Notes under the pieces: model-generated
The model's input: only the letters and a program-made list of their open reading frames with translations
Told to the model about the DNA's origin: nothing
Databases searched by the model: none
Program-made: the position numbers and the translations under genes
Shown here: in pieces, positions 1-10,057 of the stretch
How positions within the stretch are numbered: position 1 is the stretch's first letter
How the letters are laid out: each line of letters opens with the position of its first letter
From: a virus
Strand: one strand, 5' to 3'
Virus genome (UHGV): UHGV-1651400
DNA length: 10,057 bases

Positions 1-2450
1 ATGCTGGCCTGTCCTCGCACCCATTCTGTGTACCCTGATTCGTTGCCGCTGCGATCCACCAGCTGCGCGCGGTACCAGAAAATCTGCCCAGCCTTAAGGC
101 CCATCTGTTGATATTTGCGCTGCGGGTAAGGCACATCGGCCAGCAGCATCGCATCGTCTTCGGTACCGGTCAGGCTGTACTGAATTTCGGTCTTCAGCGT
201 GTCGTCGGTATTCGCCGGGAATCCCCAGTTCAGCTCGATACCGAATACCACGTTTTCAGAAGCGATAAAGCCAACCGGCTTCGGTGGATTGCCCACTTTA
301 CCAGTAAGATTTACTTCTGGTGATGTCGCCCACACTGATGAAACGTCGCTGGCGTTCACCGCCCTGACGCGGACCAGATAGCGACCAGAGTAGATACCCT
401 GCACTTCAAAGCCGAGAGAAGACGTTCGGGGCACACTAATCCAGTTGCCGCTGTCACGCCGCCATTCCGCCTCGTACGCAACTGCACCCTGAACAGCATC
501 CCAGGCAACGCGCATGGTGGTAATCGCAATGTTCTGGTTAACCGTAGAGTAACTGTCTACGACGATATTTCCTGGTGGAGCCTGAACCCCTGGCGGAATG
601 ACACTGACTGGCCGCTCGTCCAGTCTTGCGCCGGTATCAACAGCGGAATAGATATCAGGGTTGTAAGTCGTCCCGGTGACCTCGAAAGTACCGTCGTTGT
701 TGTCCCGCGTTCCCGTAACACGGAAAAGCGCTATAAACAGATCGTCAGAGTCCACACCCCAGTTACATTCAGCCTCCGGCGTTTCGCTGTAGGGTGTGGT
801 GACAGTGACTGTGTTTCCGTTAACGGCCTGGACCGTTCTGGCCTGAGCTGTGCCTGACGGAAGATTCAAAAACAGCCGGTTCCCGGCCTTCACATCAGCG
901 GCTCGATCGAGGGTTATGTTGCGGCCGTTAACCGCACTCACCCTGCCACCGATAGTTCTTCCGGCCAGCTCGTTAGCTGCCACGCCGATCACCTCACCAA
1001 CGGGGGGAACGTCCATGCCCGTGCTGAAGGTCACCACCTCGCCGATACCGTTAGTGAGCAGCGCCCAGCGCCCCCGCCGGTTTGCCTCTGACTGCCTGGT
1101 GCAGCCGATCGCAGTCATTTCGAGCTGACGATAATCGAAGCGCATGGCCAGATCGTTATCGTAAACAGGCTCAGGCGTGTCTTTATAGTGGTTGGCTGGG
1201 TCTGACCAGTTCACCAGCGCGGCAGTGTTTCGGGTGGTTTCACTCGGATCCGCAAAGGTAAATTTTCCTTCAACAACGCTGGCGTGGTTATAGATGTGCC
1301 ACACATCCCGTGGCATATCAGCCAGGACATACATCTTATTGTCGCCCCAGTACGTCATGCCGCGAAATATACCCGCCAGGTCACGAAGTACGGTCCAGGC
1401 GTCATTACGGTCCTGGATATAAACGTTGCAACGAAAACGAGGCTCCGTCCCGCTGCCGCCCTTGCCGTCTGGTACCAGTTGATCGCAATACTGGGCGATG
1501 CGATAAAGTTCCCATTTGTCTATCTGAGTCGCATCGATTCTTTGACCCAGCCCGAAGCGCTCGTTCAGAATGATGTCGTAATAAATCCAGGCAGGGTTAT
1601 CCGTCCACGCCCATTTAAATACGCCCTCCCATGTACCAGAATAAGTGCGGGTTTCGGGATCATAAGTATCAGGTACACGGATGATTCGCCCTTTCGGATT
1701 GCACACAACCTGAGGAATGCCATTAGGGAACTGCTTTGCGTCAAACTCTACATACAGCAGCGCTGTGTTAACGTAGCGAAGTTTGGCGTCAATAATTTCA
1801 GTAACGGCCACAACGCGCATGGTGTCGACGATATTCACGCTCGTGGAATCCGGCGTGATTCTGCGAACCCGCAACTGCCATCCAGTCGAGGCTTTCGGAA
1901 GATTGACGCGGTGACTGCGCTCATAAAGCGACGTGGTTTTGTCATCAACAGCACCGTTAACCACCGTTTCATACGGCCCGCCATCGACCGACAGATCGAT
2001 AGCATACTCGACGCGGGTGCCGACTTTATCACCGTTGTTTTTCTGGAGTAAAAGAGTTGGCCATCCCAGGCGAATTCGCAGCGCAGAGAGCTGCGTGTTG
2101 GATACCGCCCGAACATACGGTACAGCCTGTTTCAGCTCATATGAAACCTGAAGTTCGTTTTCAATGCCCGGAAAGCCCTGAATGTAATCCTGGTCCTGAG
2201 TACCGGAACGGAACTCGTATTTTACATTATTGAAATTGTAACTTCCGTCGGCGTTCTGGAGAGGGGTGTATGAAGATGAGTCGCCAAGGAAAATATTTTT
2301 ACCATCAAGCCCGCCGGCGAACTCCCCCTCCCCAAGAGCAATCAGCACCTTTGCCCTTGCAATGGACTGAATGCTGTCTGGTGCCTCAACAGGCGTACGG
2401 GTCTGATTGCTGCCACCTTTGCCGCGGCCTTTGATGATTGTCGTCGTCAT
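1..2450 (-). CDS. J: Host specificity protein / central tail fibre J, N-terminal ~816 codons; 3' end lies beyond the left edge of the window
   Basis: Manual minus-strand translation from ATG at 2450..2448 is open to position 1 (MTTTIIKGRGKGGSNQTRTPVEAPDSIQSIARAKVLIALGEGEFAGGLDGKNIFLGD...TEPRFRCNVYIQDRNDAW...WELYRIAQYCDQLVPDG...). These motifs match remembered lambda gpJ (TEPRITCNAY, WALYVIGQYCDQSVPDG). Position immediately downstream of I. Absent from ORF track because no stop occurs inside the window. Confidence 0.88.
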   Translation of the reverse strand, partial: MTTTIIKGRGKGGSNQTRTPVEAPDSIQSIARAKVLIALGEGEFAGGLDGKNIFLGDSSSYTPLQNADGSYNFNNVKYEFRSGTQDQDYIQGFPGIENELQVSYELKQAVPYVRAVSNTQLSALRIRLGWPTLLLQKNNGDKVGTRVEYAIDLSVDGGPYETVVNGAVDDKTTSLYERSHRVNLPKASTGWQLRVRRITPDSTSVNIVDTMRVVAVTEIIDAKLRYVNTALLYVEFDAKQFPNGIPQVVCNPKGRIIRVPDTYDPETRTYSGTWEGVFKWAWTDNPAWIYYDIILNERFGLGQRIDATQIDKWELYRIAQYCDQLVPDGKGGSGTEPRFRCNVYIQDRNDAWTVLRDLAGIFRGMTYWGDNKMYVLADMPRDVWHIYNHASVVEGKFTFADPSETTRNTAALVNWSDPANHYKDTPEPVYDNDLAMRFDYRQLEMTAIGCTRQSEANRRGRWALLTNGIGEVVTFSTGMDVPPVGEVIGVAANELAGRTIGGRVSAVNGRNITLDRAADVKAGNRLFLNLPSGTAQARTVQAVNGNTVTVTTPYSETPEAECNWGVDSDDLFIALFRVTGTRDNNDGTFEVTGTTYNPDIYSAVDTGARLDERPVSVIPPGVQAPPGNIVVDSYSTVNQNIAITTMRVAWDAVQGAVAYEAEWRRDSGNWISVPRTSSLGFEVQGIYSGRYLVRVRAVNASDVSSVWATSPEVNLTGKVGNPPKPVGFIASENVVFGIELNWGFPANTDDTLKTEIQYSLTGTEDDAMLLADVPYPQRKYQQMGLKAGQIFWYRAQLVDRSGNESGYTEWVRGQAS

Positions 2451-2460
2451 ATCGCGTCCA

Positions 2461-2485
2461 TAAAAAAGCCACCGTCAGGTGGCTT
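2461..2485 (-). terminator. Intrinsic-terminator-like hairpin between I and J (minus-strand RNA: GCCACC-UGAC-GGUGGC followed by UUUUUUA)
   Basis: Seen in sequence: plus strand 2466-2485 AAGCCACCGTCAGGTGGCTT preceded by AAAAAA (2462-2467). On the minus-strand transcript this is a GC-rich 6-8 bp stem, 4-nt loop, then a U6 tract ending 11 nt before the J ATG. Confidence 0.5.
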
Positions 2486-2502
2486 GCAGTACGTGGTTTT
2501 GT

Positions 2503-3087
2503 TTATTGCTGATCTTCTGCATAAACCCCGGCGGATATAATGGCGCCGCCAATTTCCCGTTGCCCATAAAGCAGGGGGACGGGATTGCCAGATGCCGTCG
2601 TGTTAACGGGACCACCAAACGCATAGGAGGGTTTGTTATCAGGTTCCTGACGCATTCGCAGACCTGAAACCTGAGGAGAGAGCATTTGCACTACACCGCC
2701 AACGGCCATTGCGGCACCAACGGAAAACATGAGGTTACTTGCTGCGATACTAACTCCCGGCATCCATATGGCAGCAGCGACCAGAGCCGTTCCGAGCAAC
2801 GCCTGGAAAACTCCAGCTCTTTTACTACCCCTTATCACAGGGATTATTCTTAACTCATCACCCGGCCCCAGGAGTTCAAACTCTTCGTGCCCGATATTGC
2901 GACGATCCCGGAAAATAACAAAATCCAGTCCCTTTGCCCGAGCTTCACGCAGATAAGCATCAAAGCCGTCAATGGTGTTAGAAAGCGCCCTGAAAACTTC
3001 GCTGGCGGACGTTAGTGCACGGCGATGTGTCCTGCCAAATCGCTGAGCCATTGAGCCGCTGAGTTTGATAACGGTTTTTCTTTCCAT
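2503..3087 (-). CDS. I: Tail assembly protein I
   Basis: 194-aa ORF. Glycine/alanine-rich hydrophobic C-terminal half (GVFQALLGTALVAAAIW...SVGAAMAVGGVVQMLSPQ) resembles remembered lambda gpI (GGVFQIVLGAAAIAG...LGASMVLGGVAQMLAPK). ATG 3087..3085 overlaps the K stop TAA (3089..3087) by 1 nt. Confidence 0.85.
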   Translation of the reverse strand: MERKTVIKLSGSMAQRFGRTHRRALTSASEVFRALSNTIDGFDAYLREARAKGLDFVIFRDRRNIGHEEFELLGPGDELRIIPVIRGSKRAGVFQALLGTALVAAAIWMPGVSIAASNLMFSVGAAMAVGGVVQMLSPQVSGLRMRQEPDNKPSYAFGGPVNTTASGNPVPLLYGQREIGGAIISAGVYAEDQQ

Positions 3088-3797
3088 TACATCAAATCCT
3101 TATAACGCAGAATTTTGATGGTACGGTCACGGTAATAGCCACCGTAGGGAATACGCTGGCTTAGCTGGCCATACATGTGATGCAGTAGCATGTTGCCATC
3201 AAGCAAAATCCCGGCATGGTTCGGGACGGTGGACTGAACCTGCATGATAACCATGTCACCTGGCTGAGCGGGACCGTCGTACTCACGGAAACCGCATTCC
3301 TGCCAGTTATCCATATAGAGGTTTTCACCCTGCTCCCACCAGTGGCGATCTACGCTGTAGTTGGGCAGTTCAATGCCGTGCTCGATGCGGAAATAGTCCA
3401 TGATGAGAGACCAGCAGTCTGCATACCCGAGTACAAACTGGCGCCCTGTGAGGGGACGGTCTCCGCGAGGCATGACGGTGCGAATGTCGCCCTCCGGCCA
3501 CGATGCAATAATCCAGGGCAGTTCCGTGGCATCACACATCAGCATGTCGAGCTCGCTCGGCTGAGTTGTTGCCCCGTCGCCGGGATGGCTGTGGACGATC
3601 GCCACCACAGTGCCCTGCTCTTCGGCGGCCGCATAATCCTCAGGATTAAGTTCAAATTGCTCAGTCGGCGACTCAGCATTATTTTTGCAGGGGATGTATT
3701 TCTCCACCCGCCCCTTCTGAATAACCACGCCACAGCACTCCTCGGGGAAGGATGCGGCGGCATGGGCCAGAATGGCGCTAACTGTTTTGTCGCGCAT
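3087..3797 (-). CDS. K: Tail assembly protein K (N-terminal MPN/JAMM-like domain plus C-terminal NlpC/P60-like cysteine peptidase domain)
   Basis: 236-aa ORF. SAILAHA, VHSHPGDG (JAMM-like HxH), YADCWSL (Cys) and PNHAGILL...LLHHM (His) match remembered lambda gpK. Shine-Dalgarno GAGAGGA 6-7 nt upstream of ATG 3797. Confidence 0.88.
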   Translation of the reverse strand: MRDKTVSAILAHAAASFPEECCGVVIQKGRVEKYIPCKNNAESPTEQFELNPEDYAAAEEQGTVVAIVHSHPGDGATTQPSELDMLMCDATELPWIIASWPEGDIRTVMPRGDRPLTGRQFVLGYADCWSLIMDYFRIEHGIELPNYSVDRHWWEQGENLYMDNWQECGFREYDGPAQPGDMVIMQVQSTVPNHAGILLDGNMLLHHMYGQLSQRIPYGGYYRDRTIKILRYKDLM

Positions 3798-3799
3798 GA

Positions 3800-4558
3800 T
3801 TATCCTCTCAGAAGTGAAGCGCCTGGGAACCCGCCATAATCCAGCTGTTCATTCTCTCCGAAGCGAGGTTTACAGCCCGTTGACAGCAATCCGGAGCAAA
3901 CATCCTGTGAAGGATCGTCCACCCGATTGCCGTCTTTATCGAACCAGCCGTTTTGCCCGGCGTAGGTGCAGCCGTTCCCGGTTTTGTACCAGCCCCGCAT
4001 GCACCACGTGCACATTGGCTGAATTTGCCGGGTCGGAATGAGTTGCCCTCGCAAATCGGCTGGACTTGAAAGCTCAAACTCTACGGTTTCATCGTCTGAC
4101 CCTGATTTACGGTCGATGTAATAAACCTGTTTGCGCTCCTCGTTGGGATTCGCAGTCGGGTTCCCGCCAGGAAAATTTCTTGCGTCCAGGTAGTGAGCGA
4201 AGGTGTCATGGATGATCACCTTTGCTTTAGCCATCCCCTGAAACCTGCGGCACAGCGCGCCAATCGTACCGCTGATGTTTGCAACAGTGAGTGACGGCCG
4301 TGAACTCTGGCCGTCACTGCTTACAGATATGCCGGTCAGTTCATACGGCCACGCGCCATACTCCTGCCCCTGCCACCACACCGACTTCGGCTCAAGTTTT
4401 GACTCGTCGCCGCCTGCGGCGATGATTTCCGCCTCGGTATGCGGGATTGTCTCGTTGTGAAAGCGAAGAATACCCGCACCGAACGCTGAGCCGTCCACCT
4501 CGATCAGGCGGACGCGCTTACCCGGTTCCAGTTTCTGGACATCAGATGAAATACTCAT
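3800..4558 (-). CDS. L: Tail tip assembly protein L (cysteine-rich, Fe-S-cluster type)
   Basis: ORF track gives 3800..4642, but similarity to lambda gpL begins at the internal ATG 4558..4556 (MSISSDVQKLEPGKRVRLIEVD...RPSLTVANISG...CTWCMRGW...C...C...C). That ATG overlaps the M stop as ATGA. C-terminal cluster of 5 Cys. Confidence 0.85.
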   Translation of the reverse strand: MSISSDVQKLEPGKRVRLIEVDGSAFGAGILRFHNETIPHTEAEIIAAGGDESKLEPKSVWWQGQEYGAWPYELTGISVSSDGQSSRPSLTVANISGTIGALCRRFQGMAKAKVIIHDTFAHYLDARNFPGGNPTANPNEERKQVYYIDRKSGSDDETVEFELSSPADLRGQLIPTRQIQPMCTWCMRGWYKTGNGCTYAGQNGWFDKDGNRVDDPSQDVCSGLLSTGCKPRFGENEQLDYGGFPGASLLRG

Positions 4559-4893
4559 GGATGGTATGCCTGTATGAATGTGCTGCTGAGGGTGTATTTT
4601 TTGTTGCCGTGGGTAGATATCTGGAAGGATTCCGCGCGCCATAAACCTGAAGGATCAAGCGGTGGCTTCCAGATAAATGACTTCCACCCTGCATGTCTGT
4701 TCAGAAAGTTTTTAATGGCCTGAATGTAAGCCTCGTCGCCGGTAAAGCTCACGCTCCACTGAGGTGTTACCGGGTTGATGCCGTCCCCGGCCACCTGTGT
4801 ATAGCCATCGCCAAACTGCGCCTTTCGGGTACGAAAACTTGTATCAACCTGAGAGGCAACCTTTGGGCACCAGCTGAAGGTTTCGACTGCCAT
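4555..4893 (-). CDS. M: Minor tail protein M
   Basis: FGDGYTQVA and GWKSFIWKPP match remembered lambda gpM (FGDGYSQRA, GGWKSFLWTPP). The track start at 4920 is a GTG; the ATG at 4893..4891 has Shine-Dalgarno AAGGGAG about 7 nt upstream and lies 2 nt after the H stop TAA (4898..4896), giving a lambda-M-sized product of 112 aa. Confidence 0.82.
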   Translation of the reverse strand: MAVETFSWCPKVASQVDTSFRTRKAQFGDGYTQVAGDGINPVTPQWSVSFTGDEAYIQAIKNFLNRHAGWKSFIWKPPLDPSGLWRAESFQISTHGNKKYTLSSTFIQAYHP

Positions 4894-4895
4894 GG

Positions 4896-7800
4896 TTAAA
4901 CTCCCTTGATTAATCGCCACAGAGGCGAGCCCGGCATGCTGGCCTGCTCGTTAATAACGCCAGTGATGGCATCTTTCAATTGTCTGCCAGCGGCACCGGC
5001 TGTTCCCTGACTGGCCGCCTGGGATGATCCGCCCTGAATATTGATATCGCCAAAGTTAACTGAAGGCACGCCACCAGAAACCTGCGGCATCCCCACTGCG
5101 CGAACGGCAAGATCACCATTAGGTGCCCGCGTGAGGGGCATGATTGCTTCAGGACCTGCCTCGCCGAAAATCCCTGCGCCTTTAGCAAAAGCAAACAGTT
5201 GAGGTGTCTGAAAAACGCCATTGCTGTAAGCGCTCAGGGACGGAGAGTCGTAAACATTACCCTTTGCATTAAAGGTAAAGTTCGCGCCAGCATTCTGAAT
5301 AGCGGTACCGCTGCTGGCGGTTGCGGCTGACGAGGCACCAAAACTGAACAGTGATCCAATTGAGCTGACGCCATTAGCAACAGCCATGTTCACCAGAACG
5401 TTCTGGATAATCTTCAGTACGCTCACGCCCCAGTCCTTCCAGCTGTCAACGTTGCCATTGAGCATGTCGGTGATCGTGGTGACCGCGCCACCCATGGCCT
5501 GCTTCATGCCGTCAGCGGCCATGGAAGAATAATCAGTAGCTTCGTCCACCCAGTTCGCATAACCCTCAGACAGTCCCGTCATCCAGTCGTCACGCTGCGC
5601 ATCAGAAGCTGCGTAATATCCCTCCTGGTCGCGCAGGCGCTCTTCGAGGTAGCGCTTATTAAGTGCCAGCCCCTGCTGATAGAACGTCTCGTCGATTTCA
5701 CCAGCCTGACGCTGGCGGAGAAGATCGGTATTCTTCTGCTCGAACTCCTTACGCAGATTGAACTGCTCCTGAAGTCTTTCACGGAACCTGGTTCCCTGCC
5801 CGTATCCCAGCAGTTGCGCTTCATTGGCTGCGCGGGCGCTGGCGTTACTGTCGGCAAGGTTGGCTTCGTAATTTCGCAGTTGCTCACGTAATTTAACCTG
5901 GTCAATCAGCGTAGCATTCTGCAATACCGTCTTTTTCTGGGCTTCTGTCAGAGAAGCAAGTTCGCCCTGGCTGACCTGGTATTTAACCTTCGCCAGTTCA
6001 GTATTCTGGCCTTGCAGGGCAATCTGCTCTTTTTGCTGTTTGATCAGCTTGTCATAGGCATCAGCTGTTTTTTCCGCCTCGGATTTCCCGCCCTTATGGC
6101 GGCTTGAGTCACGAATAGCTTGCAACTGCCTGGCTGACTCAACTTCCATGCTGACATACTTCTCACGCCAACCAGCAGGGAGATTAAGGTCAGATGCATC
6201 GAATTCCGCCTGCTTGCGGGTTTTGTCCAATCCCTTAAGACCGGACAACTCAAGCTGTCGCTGCGCCTTGTCTATAGCTTGCTGCTGCTTATTATCAAGT
6301 GCAGGAAGTACAGGCCCTGCATATTTTGGTGGGGACACTGCTGTAGACTGTCTGGAAACCTTGTTCAGACGGTCATACATCTCTGTAAGAGAACTTACGG
6401 CGCCAGCCATTTCTACTGTTTTATTTATAGCCTGATCAGTTATGTCGTTTATTAACTGTTGTGTTTGCTTTCTTTTATTGAGCATTTGCTCAAGTCGGCC
6501 TTCTTCAACCGCAAGTTCTGAAGCAAACTCTGCTGCTTTCTCAACCGCATCGTTATACAGCCATGTTCCCTCTGAAGCAGAATTGGCTGCTAATTTTGCG
6601 TTATAAAGTTGATTGGATAATTCAGCAACTTTCTGCTTCTGCTGTTCAATCGCACTATTTTGAGCATCCAGTGAAATATTCGCCTGTCCAAGGTTGGCGG
6701 ATATCTGCGTCTGAGACATTGATTTCAGATTATCTCGTACCTGCTCGATTGTGTCCGCATATTGGATTGCAGATTCCCTGGCTTGTTCTTGGCGTTGATA
6801 CATCATGTACCACGCCCCAGCACCCAACATTAAAATTCCTGGCAAACCACCAACTAACGACAAAAGCCCCGTAGCGCCAGACTTGAATAAATTCATTACC
6901 GATGTTGATCGGTTGAGTGCTTCTTGCGACGCTGATACTGCTTTATTTGACTGAACGAGAGTGGCATTGGCGGCTATCATTTCGCGCCGTTTGGCAATAG
7001 AATTTTGTGTAGCTGTCGCTTCTGCATTTGTGTTTTTTGCAAGTTCCAACTCGGATAGCGAGAGCTGATAAGCACGCTCGGCAGCAATCGCATCTGCTGC
7101 CGCCTTTCGTTGTGATTGGGTAGCAGATTCAGCCCTTGCAGATGCGAGCGCAATTTCGTTCTTTCTGGCATCTATTAATTGCGCCGTTTGGTTCCCAAGA
7201 TCGCCAAACATCCCTCCAAGATAGCGAGCTCCACCTATTGCAGCCAAAGCTCCGGCAGCCGTAGCCACAGTGTCGATATTGTCAGAAACTGTATTCAATA
7301 CAGCAACAAGAGCACTTGTCGCACCAGTAGCTTCATTAGCTCCACCTACCCATGCCATGAAAGCATTTTCGACTTTCGTCGTGGCAGCAGAAACGGTCTG
7401 CGGCATTGCCTCAAATTCACCACGCATAGTGCCAAGTTGACTTATCAGGGCCGGGACAACTTTATCTGCGGTTAGCATCCCCTGATCGGCCATTGCCTTC
7501 AGATCTTTACGAGCTACACCCATCCCAGCGGCCAGCGCACGGATAACTCGATCACCGTTTTCGTTAACAGAGTTGAATTCCTCGCCCCGCAGAACGCCCT
7601 GAGCTAATGCCTGACTAAACTGGGTGATAACAGAACTTGCCTCTGCCGTGCTGGCGCCGGATAGCTTTAGTCCAGTAGAAATGGCCTCGGTTACATCCAG
7701 AACTTGCTGCGAACTGTATCCGTATTCACGCATTGATGCGGCGGAACGCGCAAAAAGACTCGCATTATCAGAGAAGGCGGTTCCGGTTCGTTGGCTAATA

Positions 7801-8162
7801 TCCATCAGCGCCCGCTGAGACTCCGTGAAATCATCAGACGATTGGGAAGCCTGCTTTAGCCTGGCATTAACAGAGCTCCATTCATCGGCCAGCGATATAA
7901 GATGACCAGTCGCAAATGCTCCAGCAAATGCACCTGCCATTCCCAGCGCTGAGGCCTTCGCGGTGTTTATTTGACTAGTTACCTCAGCTAAGGCACGCTG
8001 AGTTTCACGCGAAGCTGCGGCCGCTTGGCGTCCTCCAGTCTGCATTACCCGGTAATAGTCATTCCCCATTCTTGAAGCACGAGAAATTTCAGACTGAAAT
8101 GACTGAGAGTTTGCAGATATTTTGATGATCAGTTCGCGCAACGTAGCCATATTTTCACCCAT
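4896..8162 (-). CDS. H: Tail tape measure protein (lambda gpH analogue), 1088 aa
   Basis: Single very long ORF sitting between the G/T chaperone pair and M. Ala/Gln/Glu-rich, predicted helical/coiled-coil, with an internal hydrophobic segment (LLSLVGGLPGILMLGAGAWYMMY) and a Gly-rich C-terminal region. An alternative start at ATG 8150..8148 is preceded by GGTGA; the first ATG at 8162 abuts a U8 tract. Confidence 0.9.
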   Translation of the reverse strand: MGENMATLRELIIKISANSQSFQSEISRASRMGNDYYRVMQTGGRQAAAASRETQRALAEVTSQINTAKASALGMAGAFAGAFATGHLISLADEWSSVNARLKQASQSSDDFTESQRALMDISQRTGTAFSDNASLFARSAASMREYGYSSQQVLDVTEAISTGLKLSGASTAEASSVITQFSQALAQGVLRGEEFNSVNENGDRVIRALAAGMGVARKDLKAMADQGMLTADKVVPALISQLGTMRGEFEAMPQTVSAATTKVENAFMAWVGGANEATGATSALVAVLNTVSDNIDTVATAAGALAAIGGARYLGGMFGDLGNQTAQLIDARKNEIALASARAESATQSQRKAAADAIAAERAYQLSLSELELAKNTNAEATATQNSIAKRREMIAANATLVQSNKAVSASQEALNRSTSVMNLFKSGATGLLSLVGGLPGILMLGAGAWYMMYQRQEQARESAIQYADTIEQVRDNLKSMSQTQISANLGQANISLDAQNSAIEQQKQKVAELSNQLYNAKLAANSASEGTWLYNDAVEKAAEFASELAVEEGRLEQMLNKRKQTQQLINDITDQAINKTVEMAGAVSSLTEMYDRLNKVSRQSTAVSPPKYAGPVLPALDNKQQQAIDKAQRQLELSGLKGLDKTRKQAEFDASDLNLPAGWREKYVSMEVESARQLQAIRDSSRHKGGKSEAEKTADAYDKLIKQQKEQIALQGQNTELAKVKYQVSQGELASLTEAQKKTVLQNATLIDQVKLREQLRNYEANLADSNASARAANEAQLLGYGQGTRFRERLQEQFNLRKEFEQKNTDLLRQRQAGEIDETFYQQGLALNKRYLEERLRDQEGYYAASDAQRDDWMTGLSEGYANWVDEATDYSSMAADGMKQAMGGAVTTITDMLNGNVDSWKDWGVSVLKIIQNVLVNMAVANGVSSIGSLFSFGASSAATASSGTAIQNAGANFTFNAKGNVYDSPSLSAYSNGVFQTPQLFAFAKGAGIFGEAGPEAIMPLTRAPNGDLAVRAVGMPQVSGGVPSVNFGDINIQGGSSQAASQGTAGAAGRQLKDAITGVINEQASMPGSPLWRLIKGV

Positions 8163-8186
8163 AAAAAAAACCCGCTTGATAGCGGG
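8163..8186 (-). terminator. Intrinsic terminator downstream of the small membrane-protein ORF (minus-strand RNA: CCCGCU-AUCA-AGCGGG followed by UUUUUUUU)
   Basis: Seen in sequence: plus strand 8163-8170 AAAAAAAA, 8171-8176 CCCGCT, loop 8177-8180 TGAT, 8181-8186 AGCGGG. On the minus strand this is a perfect 6-bp GC-rich stem followed directly by eight U, then the H ATG. Confidence 0.65.
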
Positions 8187-8193
8187 TCGTGAG

Positions 8194-8382
8194 TTATAAA
8201 CTGTCTTTTCTTTTGTGAGCGACTTGTATTAATAAATCTATTTGCGCATCTTGTTTTTTATTTATCTCTTTAAGGGCTTCAACTTGTTCATTTGCCCTTG
8301 TGCTAAACCGTATTACATAAAAAATCACAATTAGATTTATCAACCAGCCGAATATTCCAAACACTACTACCAGTGGTTCCAT
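8194..8382 (-). CDS. Hypothetical small single-pass membrane protein (62 aa), candidate moron
   Basis: ATG 8382..8380 is preceded by a strong Shine-Dalgarno (AAAAGGAGG, 4-nt spacer). Product MEPLVVVFGIFGWLINLIVIFYVIRFSTRANEQVEALKEINKKQDAQIDLLIQVAHKRKDSL has an N-terminal hydrophobic helix and a charged amphipathic C-terminus. DNA is visibly AT-rich relative to flanking tail genes and is followed by a terminator. No homolog recognised from memory. Confidence 0.55.
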   Translation of the reverse strand: MEPLVVVFGIFGWLINLIVIFYVIRFSTRANEQVEALKEINKKQDAQIDLLIQVAHKRKDSL

Positions 8383-8439
8383 AACGCCTCCTTTTCTTAA
8401 GGAAAGAGCGTATCGCCACATTGATGACATGTGAAGCAA

Positions 8440-8718
8440 TTATTGTGTCGCAGCTGTTAGCGCCGCTTCAAGCCCTGCAAACGGGTCATTCGGTTCTGAT
8501 TGCTCCTCACCACCCCAGCGCAGGATCGCATCGTCCAGCGGTACTTTTGCCCCCTGCGAACCGTAGATGGCAGAGACGATCTGGGCGGCCTGAATGTCAC
8601 CGCGAATATCGCCAACCGGACTTTGCCTGTCGTACTCAATCCACATCAGAAGCTCGCTTGCCGTCATATTCTGCCGAAGCTCTGAGAGCGTGCGCCCCAT
8701 CCGGAGCGCAAGCGACAT
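8440..8718 (-). CDS. T: Tail assembly protein T domain, expected to be expressed as a G-T fusion via -1 frameshift
   Basis: -1 frame relative to G. Product (MSLALRMGRTLSELRQNMTASELLMWIEYDRQSPVGDIRGDIQAAQI...) has the character of the phage minor-tail-protein T family. No Shine-Dalgarno before ATG 8718. The T frame is open upstream to a TGA at 8781..8779, so it overlaps the last ~17 codons of G. Confidence 0.78.
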   Translation of the reverse strand: MSLALRMGRTLSELRQNMTASELLMWIEYDRQSPVGDIRGDIQAAQIVSAIYGSQGAKVPLDDAILRWGGEEQSEPNDPFAGLEAALTAATQ

Positions 8719-8726
8719 CAGAAACT

Positions 8727-9110
8727 TTACGCCGGGGGTTGAGACTTTTCCCGCGCTTCGTCCGCGTTGTTGATCAGGTCAAGCGCCTGTTTGAGCAGGC
8801 GTGAATGGACGGGGCCGTAGATTTCACGCACCTGCTCTTCTTCGTCTACGCTGAATACCGGTTGCTTATCGGTGTCGCACAGGACGTCAATGAAGAGCAC
8901 CACGTCAGCGCAAAGATTACGGTGTGCCTTTTCCGATACCGACACATTTTCATCATCAGCACCCGCTTTCACCACCTCCTGCCAGCGCAGCCAGGCTTCT
9001 CCAGACGGCTCACGGAGAACCACTTTGACGCCTTCCCACTCAGGAACGGCGACCATCTTATGACGAAATCCCGACATCTTAGCCAGGGCGAGATTTTTAA
9101 TATTCTTCAT
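8727..9110 (-). CDS. G: Tail assembly chaperone (lambda gpG analogue)
   Basis: 127-aa acidic ORF directly downstream of the major tail protein gene and overlapped at its 3' end by the -1 frame T ORF. Shine-Dalgarno GAGAGG about 5 nt before ATG 9110. Assignment is positional and architectural; no sequence similarity to lambda gpG recognised. Confidence 0.65.
   Translation of the reverse strand: MKNIKNLALAKMSGFRHKMVAVPEWEGVKVVLREPSGEAWLRWQEVVKAGADDENVSVSEKAHRNLCADVVLFIDVLCDTDKQPVFSVDEEEQVREIYGPVHSRLLKQALDLINNADEAREKSQPPA
8745..8752 (-). other. Candidate programmed -1 ribosomal frameshift site (GGGAAAAG on the minus strand) within the G/T overlap
   Basis: Minus strand 8756->8727 reads GCG CGG GAA AAG TCT CAA CCC CCG GCG TAA in the G frame; the -1 (T) frame reads GCG GGA AAA GTC. 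The register differs from lambda's canonical G GGA AAG, so the exact slip position is uncertain; a CCCCC run at 8738-8734 is an alternative. Confidence 0.4.
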
Positions 9111-9118
9111 GCGACCTC

Positions 9119-9562
9119 TCAGGAGCCAGACTCGATGTTTTCAGGCTTACCTTTCAGGCGCAGGGAGAACGTTGCCGCCACTACGCCGTTGGTACCTGAA
9201 GACCAGGTGTGCTGGCGGATTTCAGCCAGGAACTTAAAGCCCTTGCCGGACGGGAAGATAACCTGGAAAGCGTAGGTCGTATCGTTGTCATAGGCCTCAC
9301 GCAAGGCGTCCTGCGCCGGATTCTTGTAGAAGTTGCCGGACAGAGAGATTTCTGACGGAGAAGGCAGGCCGTTGATGTTCTCCTGCTCGGTAGAGCAAAG
9401 TGTTGTTACGTCGATATCCTGCTTCTGACCACCGGTGAACTGAATTTCTTTGATGGTGCAACTCAGATCGAGGAAGGTTGCGGAATCCATCGTTTCTTTG
9501 GTAGCTGGCAGGGAGGAAATAAGGATCTTCGTCAGCTGCGATTTTTCATAAAGTGCAGACAT
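9119..9562 (-). CDS. Major tail (tube) protein, short form without a C-terminal Ig-like extension
   Basis: 147-aa ORF immediately upstream of the G/T pair. Strong Shine-Dalgarno (CAGGAGA, ~6 nt spacer). Not recognisably similar to lambda gpV from memory and markedly shorter; the call rests on position and size. Confidence 0.7.
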   Translation of the reverse strand: MSALYEKSQLTKILISSLPATKETMDSATFLDLSCTIKEIQFTGGQKQDIDVTTLCSTEQENINGLPSPSEISLSGNFYKNPAQDALREAYDNDTTYAFQVIFPSGKGFKFLAEIRQHTWSSGTNGVVAATFSLRLKGKPENIESGS

Positions 9563-9570
9563 AGCTGTCT

Positions 9571-9603
9571 CCTGGAAAAAGAAAACCCGCCATCAGGCGG
9601 GTT
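9571..9603 (-). terminator. Terminator-like or attenuator hairpin upstream of the major tail gene (minus-strand RNA: AACCCGCC-UGAU-GGCGGGUU followed by UUCUUUUUCC)
   Basis: Seen in sequence: plus strand 9584-9591 AACCCGCC, loop ATCA, 9596-9603 GGCGGGTT. On the minus strand the 8-bp stem is followed by a U-rich tract, then the major-tail Shine-Dalgarno and ATG. Confidence 0.45.
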
Positions 9604-9621
9604 CGTTGGGTGAATTAATTG

Positions 9622-9969
9622 TCAGGGGGTAACTTTAAAATCCAGGGTGGCACGGTAGAGCCGATAATCTGGCTCGTAACCGGGGATTTTTACCACCTCT
9701 GTAGGGTTTAAGGGCTTCAGCGAAGCGAGCGCCAAATCTCTCAGGGTGCGTGATTCAGTGATCGTAGTGGAATACACATCTACCTGAATGGAAACCCTGC
9801 TCTCTGCCTGGCCGCACAGCACGTCAGCGGAAACATCATCGACGATGGAAAAAATAATCCAGGGCGGAGAGACTGAAGGCTTTCCGTCACTGCCGAGAGG
9901 CGCAACGTAGGGATAAACCTGCCCTCCGGCCAGCGGCGCCAGCAGAGGATAGAGATCGTCTTCCGTCAT
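9622..9969 (-). CDS. Putative tail terminator / tail completion protein (positional analogue of lambda gpU)
   Basis: 115-aa ORF directly upstream of the major tail gene. ATG 9969..9967 overlaps the stop of the upstream gene as ATGA. No sequence similarity to lambda gpU recognised; the call is by synteny and size only. Confidence 0.5.
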   Translation of the reverse strand: MTEDDLYPLLAPLAGGQVYPYVAPLGSDGKPSVSPPWIIFSIVDDVSADVLCGQAESRVSIQVDVYSTTITESRTLRDLALASLKPLNPTEVVKIPGYEPDYRLYRATLDFKVTP

Positions 9970-10057
9970 TTGCTTAATGCCTCGTCAATGGCCTGGTTCA
10001 TGCGCCTGATCGCAACCTCCGTCGCCTGCTCCTGGCGAACATCGAACGCGGGACGAA
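9966..10057 (-). CDS. C-terminal fragment of upstream gene (positional analogue of lambda gpZ, tail completion/head-tail joining); 5' end outside window
   Basis: Minus-strand frame is open from the window edge to TGA 9968..9966 (...RPRFDVRQEQATEVAIRRMNQAIDEALSK*). Its stop overlaps the next start codon (ATGA), suggesting translational coupling. Confidence 0.4.
   Translation of the reverse strand, partial: RPAFDVRQEQATEVAIRRMNQAIDEALSK

Follow-up and report, generated by a model that had tools for sequence, protein, structure and literature searches.

The first 2450 nucleotides of the analyzed DNA (a stretch of 10,057 nucleotides from virus genome UHGV-1651400, hereafter referred to as the window) almost certainly encode, on the minus strand, the first 816 residues of J (tip attachment protein or central tail fibre), the baseplate hub protein of a temperate HK97-like siphophage (Hendrixvirinae) that is integrated in an Enterobacter genome. 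As the sequence-only reading had claimed, the minus-strand frame runs uninterrupted from an ATG at 2450: Translation from 2450 to 1 yielded 816 codons that were open down to base 3, with zero stops, while bases 1 and 2 form the start of codon 817. The remaining five frames of 1-2450 contained 11 to 51 stops each, and upon mononucleotide shuffling of this region (n = 2000) the longest open run had a mean of 119 and a maximum of 307 codons. The J frame is bounded upstream by an in-frame TGA at 2477-2475, and ATG 2450 is the sole ATG, GTG, or TTG between this stop and the body of J. A weak GGA Shine-Dalgarno motif is located at 2459-2457, 6 nt 5′ of the ATG, and the start base of J is equivalent to 2450 in three annotated relatives, viz., LAU1, AsXd-1, and an Escherichia coli prophage. 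That the gene nonetheless went unlisted had been ascribed to the lack of a stop within the window, and correctly so: J is absent from the list of open reading frames (ORFs) because the lister drops ORFs that run off a sequence end. For annotation, the lesson is that a 2.45-kb gene was invisible to such an ORF caller, which listed seven spurious ORFs instead.

Family searches bore out the earlier assignment of this frame as a lambda-gpJ-like gene. Two Pfam models matched the product above their curated thresholds, namely, FNIII-A_GpJ (PF24801) with 157.6 bits versus a cut-off of 27 (E = 2.1e-46) and Phage-tail_3 (PF13550) with 48.9 bits versus a cut-off of 23 (E = 8.7e-13). PHROG 31, “central tail fiber J,” matched J residues 3-816 (E = 0, 1169 bits), and PHROG 2589 matched the same residues (E = 0). 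The best solved homologue was the central fibre of the F2-pyocin (25vf; E = 1e-278, J residues 10-815), with further solved matches to 9l9p (1.8e-216) and to the “J-like tail tip protein gp24” of 23gd (3.8e-190), and the structure of lambda gpJ (8iyk) matched J residues 10-700 with E = 8.7e-103. BLASTP against lambda J yielded 34% identity over 717 amino acids (E = 5e-106). Two NCBIfam models scored below their curated cut-offs: NF049904 lambda_TipJ, which is an exception-level model for lambda J itself, reached 406.8 bits (E = 1.6e-121) versus 1950, and attach_TipJ_rel reached 50 bits versus 140. Scores below the cut-offs are to be expected of a fragment so divergent (34% identity to lambda J) and are not informative. 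Because the lambda_TipJ score of 407 bits lies far under 1950, the gene in the window ranks as a J-family homologue, not as an equivalog of lambda J.

The J frame also showed the substitution pattern of a protein-coding gene. A search via the exact gpI and tape-measure proteins of the window yielded no contig with complete identity to it; the closest one (L014; GCA_032987405.1), found among the contigs that encode the exact tape-measure protein, was 99.56% identical to the window over 1-10001. J differed from that of L014 by nine nucleotides, and all nine differences were synonymous. Against eight relatives besides L014, the dN/dS of the J frame was 0.012-0.037, and when the nine close relatives were pooled, 30, 18, and 654 differences fell on J codon positions 1, 2, and 3, respectively (i.e., 654 of 702 at the third position). 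J is thus under purifying selection.

The seven ORFs that were listed for the same region were all present, at 108..323, 199..381, 850..1128, 1284..2051, 1310..1573, and 1933..2151 on the plus strand and at 1835..2116 on the minus strand, where the latter is read in a different frame from J (phase 1). The sequence-only reading had dismissed them as antisense or out-of-frame artefacts, and our data agree. A Pfam search of all seven yielded no match at E ≤ 1, and four of them had, in one or more of the close relatives (94-99.6% identical), either no start or a newly acquired stop, with nonsynonymous change predominating in these four. We consider it exceedingly improbable that even one of the overlapping ORFs is a real antisense or embedded gene. 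The plus-strand ORF at 1284-2051 is, with 255 amino acids, long for a noncoding frame, but it displayed 5 synonymous versus 89 nonsynonymous differences and sits in the codon-aligned antisense frame of J, which is stop-poor (only 11 stops over 2450 bases). The ORFs at 199-381, 850-1128, and 1933-2151 were open in all nine close relatives, with mostly synonymous change in their own frame; this apparent conservation is, however, inherited from J, because their wobble position coincides with that of J. As the shared wobble renders dN/dS uninformative for these three, we used a stop-codon test in diverged homologues instead. Across 17 such homologues, including lambda, the frames equivalent to these three ORFs and to 1284-2051 almost always contained at least one stop, whereas the J frame was open.

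J closes a canonical same-strand tail module with the order U-V-G-T-H-M-L-K-I-J, as identified by Pfam and PHROG matches (Table 1). The order M-L-K-I-J was the same in annotated relatives. By the coordinates of these relatives, L (252 amino acids) starts near 4558 and M (112 amino acids) near 4896, and the longest ORFs listed for L and M are therefore over-extended. Across the G/T overlap (8778-8727), we found no canonical X XXY YYZ heptamer in the G frame; the overlap does contain a GGGAAAA at 8752-8746, in the phase CGG GAA AAG.

Table 1. Features of the window, listed in the direction of transcription of the tail module, with the domains of J at the end.
Feature	Coordinates	Strand	Evidence
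Tail terminator / completion	9622-9969	-	Pfam / PHROG
Tail tube	9119-9562	-	Pfam / PHROG
G-like chaperone	8727-9110	-	Pfam / PHROG
T-like ORF in -1 frame	8440-8718	-	Pfam / PHROG
YebO-like small gene (ORF)	8194-8439	-	Pfam / PHROG
Tape measure	4896-8150	-	Pfam / PHROG
M, L, K	3087..4920	-	Phage_min_tail, Phage_tail_L, Prok-JAB + NlpC/P60
K	3087-3797	-	Prok-JAB + NlpC/P60
I, immediately 5′ of J	2503..3087	-	PF06805 Lambda_tail_I, 7.3e-8; PHROG 32, 2.5e-71
Terminator-like hairpin AAGCCACC-TGAC-GGTGGCTT, then T-run	2466..2485	-	Consensus scan; fold z = -2.5
J, 5′ 63% (codons 1-816, no stop)	1..2450	-	Open frame; Pfam, PHROG, and PDB matches; L014 identity; dN/dS
FNIII-A_GpJ (hub insertion domain), J residues 97-222	1785..2162	-	PF24801, profile positions 2-126 of 126
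Phage-tail_3 hub-domain core, J residues 348-479	1014..1409	-	PF13550; aligned to lambda gpJ and PyoF10 hub
FNIII-1, J residues 617-702	345..602	-	FN3con chain 4u3h match, 1.2e-4; domain order from PMC11101478
FNIII-2 and start of exchangeable distal module, J residues 715-816	3..308	-	Aligned to PyoF10 720-815; HK446 identity

The relatives of the window place this module in a phage of Enterobacter. Megablast aligned all of 1-2450 to Enterobacter phage LAU1 (95.3%) and to “Aeromonas” phage AsXd-1 (96.6%), and window positions 1-6095 were 96.8% identical to LAU1 and AsXd-1, both of which are filed under Hendrixvirinae. The label of J varied among these entries, from “tail tip attachment protein J” in LAU1 to “hypothetical protein” in AsXd-1 and “host specificity protein J” in the E. 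coli prophage. In a scan of species-representative genomes, 99% matches occurred in Enterobacter, and relatives at 53-66% in Enterobacter, Pseudocitrobacter, Dryocola, Buttiauxella, Pantoea, and Serratia. Relatives matched HK97-gp10_like, Phage_HK97_TLTM, and Hendrixvirinae_terminase_S, such that placement in Hendrixvirinae draws on both close nucleotide identity to classified members and the HK97-type head and tail genes of the relatives.

The top PDB match was the tail fibre of an F2-pyocin, and the window contains only tail genes, without a single complete gene for head or packaging functions. We therefore weighed whether J could be part of a phage-tail-like bacteriocin (an F-type tailocin) and not of a phage. 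The near-identical loci argue strongly against this: In L014 and L011-L013, the genes that directly precede the same tail module on its upstream side encode HNH, small and large terminase, portal, protease, major capsid, and head-tail connector proteins. Furthermore, LAU1 and AsXd-1 were deposited as phage genomes, and the last 56 bases of the window enter an HK97-gp10-like head-completion gene that is known from relatives. An F-type tailocin is a locus without head, packaging, and replication genes, and the terminase, portal, protease, and capsid genes of L014 and L011-L013 do not fit that description. Because near-identical loci carry these genes upstream, we read the locus as a prophage, and a tailocin origin of J as highly improbable.

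The window carries about 63% of J, as deduced from the J of L014, which is 1303 amino acids long and 100% identical to the product of the window over its first 816 residues. Past residue 816, the L014 protein continues with a coiled-coil-like segment and a Phage_Tail_Tip domain (PF09327) at residues 1027-1164, and it ends in some 140 further residues. These C-terminal 487 amino acids matched the fibre region of lambda, the F2-pyocin, and 9l9p, and were 56% identical to HK97 J across all 487 residues. Among relatives, J measured 1152-1303 amino acids, or 1152-1293 when L014 is set aside, and the relatives diverged from each other past residue 816; 3′ of J, they usually carried two small ORFs, cor, a side tail fibre gene, and dinI. 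Hence, the C-terminal part of J and any genes downstream of it do lie beyond the window, as had been anticipated. The L014 contig itself stops 844 nt past J, and a PHROG search with a 219–amino acid ORF in these 844 nt yielded no match. The 3′ part of J is probably intact and similar to its L014 proxy. A decaying remnant, in which J would be truncated or pseudogenised within a cryptic prophage and the open frame would be a surviving piece, appeared very unlikely to us. The 3′ end of J does fall outside the window, and decay does occur among relatives: Locus L010 has its J, tape measure, and T-like assembly genes in pieces, and the tail tube gene of E. coli SZQ1 is a pseudogene. Against this stand the 816 stop-free codons, the all-synonymous differences from L014 together with the low dN/dS versus the eight other relatives, and the finding that every tail gene in the window was full length with family matches. 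An intact gene of which the window captured the 5′ part is thus the reading that we retain.

Within the window, J comprises hub domains (about residues 1-600) and two FNIII domains (about residues 617-816), and the alignment to lambda gpJ stops within FNIII-1, at residue 697. Megablast with window positions 1-308 returned short 95% matches to the J genes of HK446, mEp234, mEpX2, and HK633. When compared with HK446 J, residues 1-714 were 54-74% identical at the DNA level and about 47-76% at the protein level, whereas residues 715-816 were 94-97% identical in DNA and 100% identical in protein. The change is abrupt and marks a mosaic junction at J residue 714/715, between FNIII-1 and FNIII-2, and because the identity to HK446 is low before it and high after it, the hub module is of a different lineage from the distal module. 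Modular exchange of this kind, in the distal part of J, is well known.

The 52-nt gap between I and J contains the terminator-like hairpin of Table 1, which is short and GC-rich and sits about 10 nt upstream of the ribosome-binding region with the weak Shine-Dalgarno motif, and 10-20 nt from the ATG of J. The hairpin was kept in every relative examined, including those in which J is just 53-66% identical, and its carriers included prophages of Enterobacter, Dryocola, Serratia, Pantoea, and Buttiauxella as well as HK446 and lambda, where the equivalent in the I-J gap reads AACCGCC-TGCG-GGCGGTT. Covariation analysis found 84% of the cells to be paired, as compared to 26-56% in slid controls, and in seven cells the stem had changed on both sides in a compensatory manner, a number reached by none of 500 shuffles. 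Similar hairpins were seen ahead of the tape-measure and tail-tube genes. A limited literature search returned no described terminator between lambda I and J. J is present in three copies per virion. The I-J hairpin might conceivably act as a conserved attenuator, or as a 3′-end or processing element, that would set a low dose of J relative to the upstream tail genes and would be read through only by antiterminated polymerase, a speculative reading that we consider rather unlikely.

The sequence-only reading had named the gene “host-specificity gene J.” Its membership in the J family stands, but the in-window part consists of the structural hub and FNIII domains and is not the determinant of specificity. 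The window encodes the conserved structural half of J, while the helical shaft, the straight fibre, and the receptor-binding tip, and with them the host-specificity determinant itself, are encoded off-window; as long as that C-terminus is missing, the window says nothing about host range or receptor. The likely function of the encoded half can be outlined by analogy. In lambda gpJ, the hub domains and two FNIII domains lead into an alpha-helical shaft, which is followed by a beta-prism straight fibre and, at the C-terminus, the receptor-binding domain; a J trimer with L sits beneath the M ring and closes the tube (PMC11101478). Upon receptor binding, the fibre is twisted and the shaft flipped, the FNIII strings come apart, the hub domains turn outward, and the gpI plug is freed (PMC11101478). 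If J of the window works as its homologues do (PMC11101478, PMC13455828), it would likewise form a trimeric tail tip that determines host range and opens upon receptor binding. Its hub domains would adapt the six-fold symmetry of the tube to three-fold symmetry and close the tube, and its FNIII domains would seal the tube and join the hub to the alpha-helical shaft, the straight fibre, and the receptor-binding domain. Once the tip meets its receptor, a twist running up the fibre would dissociate the FNIII strings, upon which the hub domains would rotate outward and release the gpI plug, leaving the tube open for the exit of DNA.

Set against known systems, the J gene of the window is an ordinary and already known one, with a protein sequence that is public and with DNA that is, over 1-2450, 95-99.6% identical to that of annotated phages and prophages, such as LAU1 (QHR63317.1, 1281 amino acids), AsXd-1 (AXC33163.1), and L014. 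The relatives compared agree with the window in 807-816 of the 816 residues, use the same start codon, and have J next to the same genes in the order M-L-K-I-J. Lambda gpJ (1132 amino acids; PDB 8IYK, 8XCG, and 8XCI) is homologous in its hub domains and FNIII-1 (window residues 13-700 versus lambda 4-697), is encoded in the same place after I, and has the same hairpin in the I-J gap; it differs in that its sequence is distant and its FNIII-2 could not be aligned by phmmer. The receptor of lambda is LamB, from which the receptor of the phage in the window cannot be inferred. PyoF10 of the F2-pyocin (PDB 25VF) has the same hub as J of the window; in the tail tip complex, its structure is reported as far as residue 819 (PMC13455828), about where the window breaks off. 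Unlike the window, of which near-identical loci have head and packaging genes, the F2-pyocin is a headless Pseudomonas bacteriocin. Finally, the J/gp24-type central fibres of the E. coli HK97- and HK022-like phages (HK97 J, HK446 HK446_020, mEp234, mEpX2, and phi80; PDB 23GD) have the same architecture as J of the window.

The J gene, which encodes the tail tip on the minus strand, was found to contain a sharp mosaic junction at window position ~306–308, corresponding to J residue 714/715. Distal of this point, the DNA is 94–97% identical to the J genes of the E. coli lambdoid phages HK446, mEp234, and mEpX2, while proximal of it the identity is only 54–74%. The position of the junction coincides with the boundary between the first and second fibronectin type III domains of the protein.

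Breaks in similarity were also seen elsewhere. Across 6095–8444, which spans the moron slot and the N-terminal and central parts of the tape-measure gene, megablast similarity was lost in most close relatives (loci L001, L002, and L004–L010) and retained in L003 and L011–L014. At the far end, the 99.56% match of L014 (GCA_032987405.1, an Enterobacter prophage) ends at 10001, whereas L011–L013 match on to the window end. Regions 6095–8444 and 10001–10057 count as further mosaic breakpoints. A small YebO-like gene occupies the slot that separates the tape-measure gene from the T-like chaperone gene here, and the cargo of this slot varies among relatives (a 111-aa Zn-ribbon protein, YebO, or unknown 78- or 113-aa proteins). 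The slot has the look of a moron insertion hot-spot.

One of these relatives, L002 (MH178096.1, Aeromonas phage AsXd-1), was deposited with Aeromonas salmonicida as its host, with every gene annotated as “hypothetical protein.” Across 6 kb, it is 96.8% identical to Enterobacter prophage tail genes. The host assignment looks doubtful, or it would point to a very recent cross-order transfer.

Features of the tail module (all coordinates in the window)
Feature	Position	Strand	Remark
Terminator-like hairpin + T-run	2466–2485	minus	within I-J intergenic gap 2451–2502, close upstream of J start
L, longest-ORF call	3800–4642	minus	280 aa
M, longest-ORF call	4555–4920	minus	121 aa
Terminator-like hairpin + T-run, intergenic	8169–8188	minus	inside tail operon, immediately before tape-measure gene
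Small YebO-like gene	ORF 8194–8439; likely gene 8194–8382	minus	PF13974, 3e-9
G/T overlap	8727–8778	minus	T-like ORF open back to 8778
Terminator-like hairpin + T-run, intergenic	9583–9604	minus	inside tail operon, immediately before tail-tube gene

The longest-ORF calls of L and M overlap by 88 bases, and relatives are annotated with proteins of 252 and 112 aa, respectively, and overlaps of 4 bases; both calls are over-extended. The tape measure probably starts at 8150 (MATLREL...) rather than at 8162, and the protein starting at 8150 is exactly the one recorded in public contigs.

Relative to the G-like chaperone gene, the T-like ORF is in the −1 frame. Within their overlap, no canonical X XXY YYZ heptamer occurs in the G frame, and GGGAAAA at 8752–8746 is phased CGG GAA AAG. 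Hence, the frameshift site is either not lambda-type or in a different phase.

A scan for terminator-like sites returned 17, versus 10.0 ± 3.0 in shuffles. The hairpin before the tape-measure gene is followed by TTTTTTATGG, the same arrangement as at the hairpin between I and J, where the motif T6-8-ATGGGCGCAATATG is conserved on the 3′ side. This I-J hairpin, for which a literature search yielded no description, may be an attenuator or a processing/3′-end element. It is conserved even where the J of a relative is only 53–66% identical, the stem showing compensatory changes, and it is also found in HK446 and lambda.
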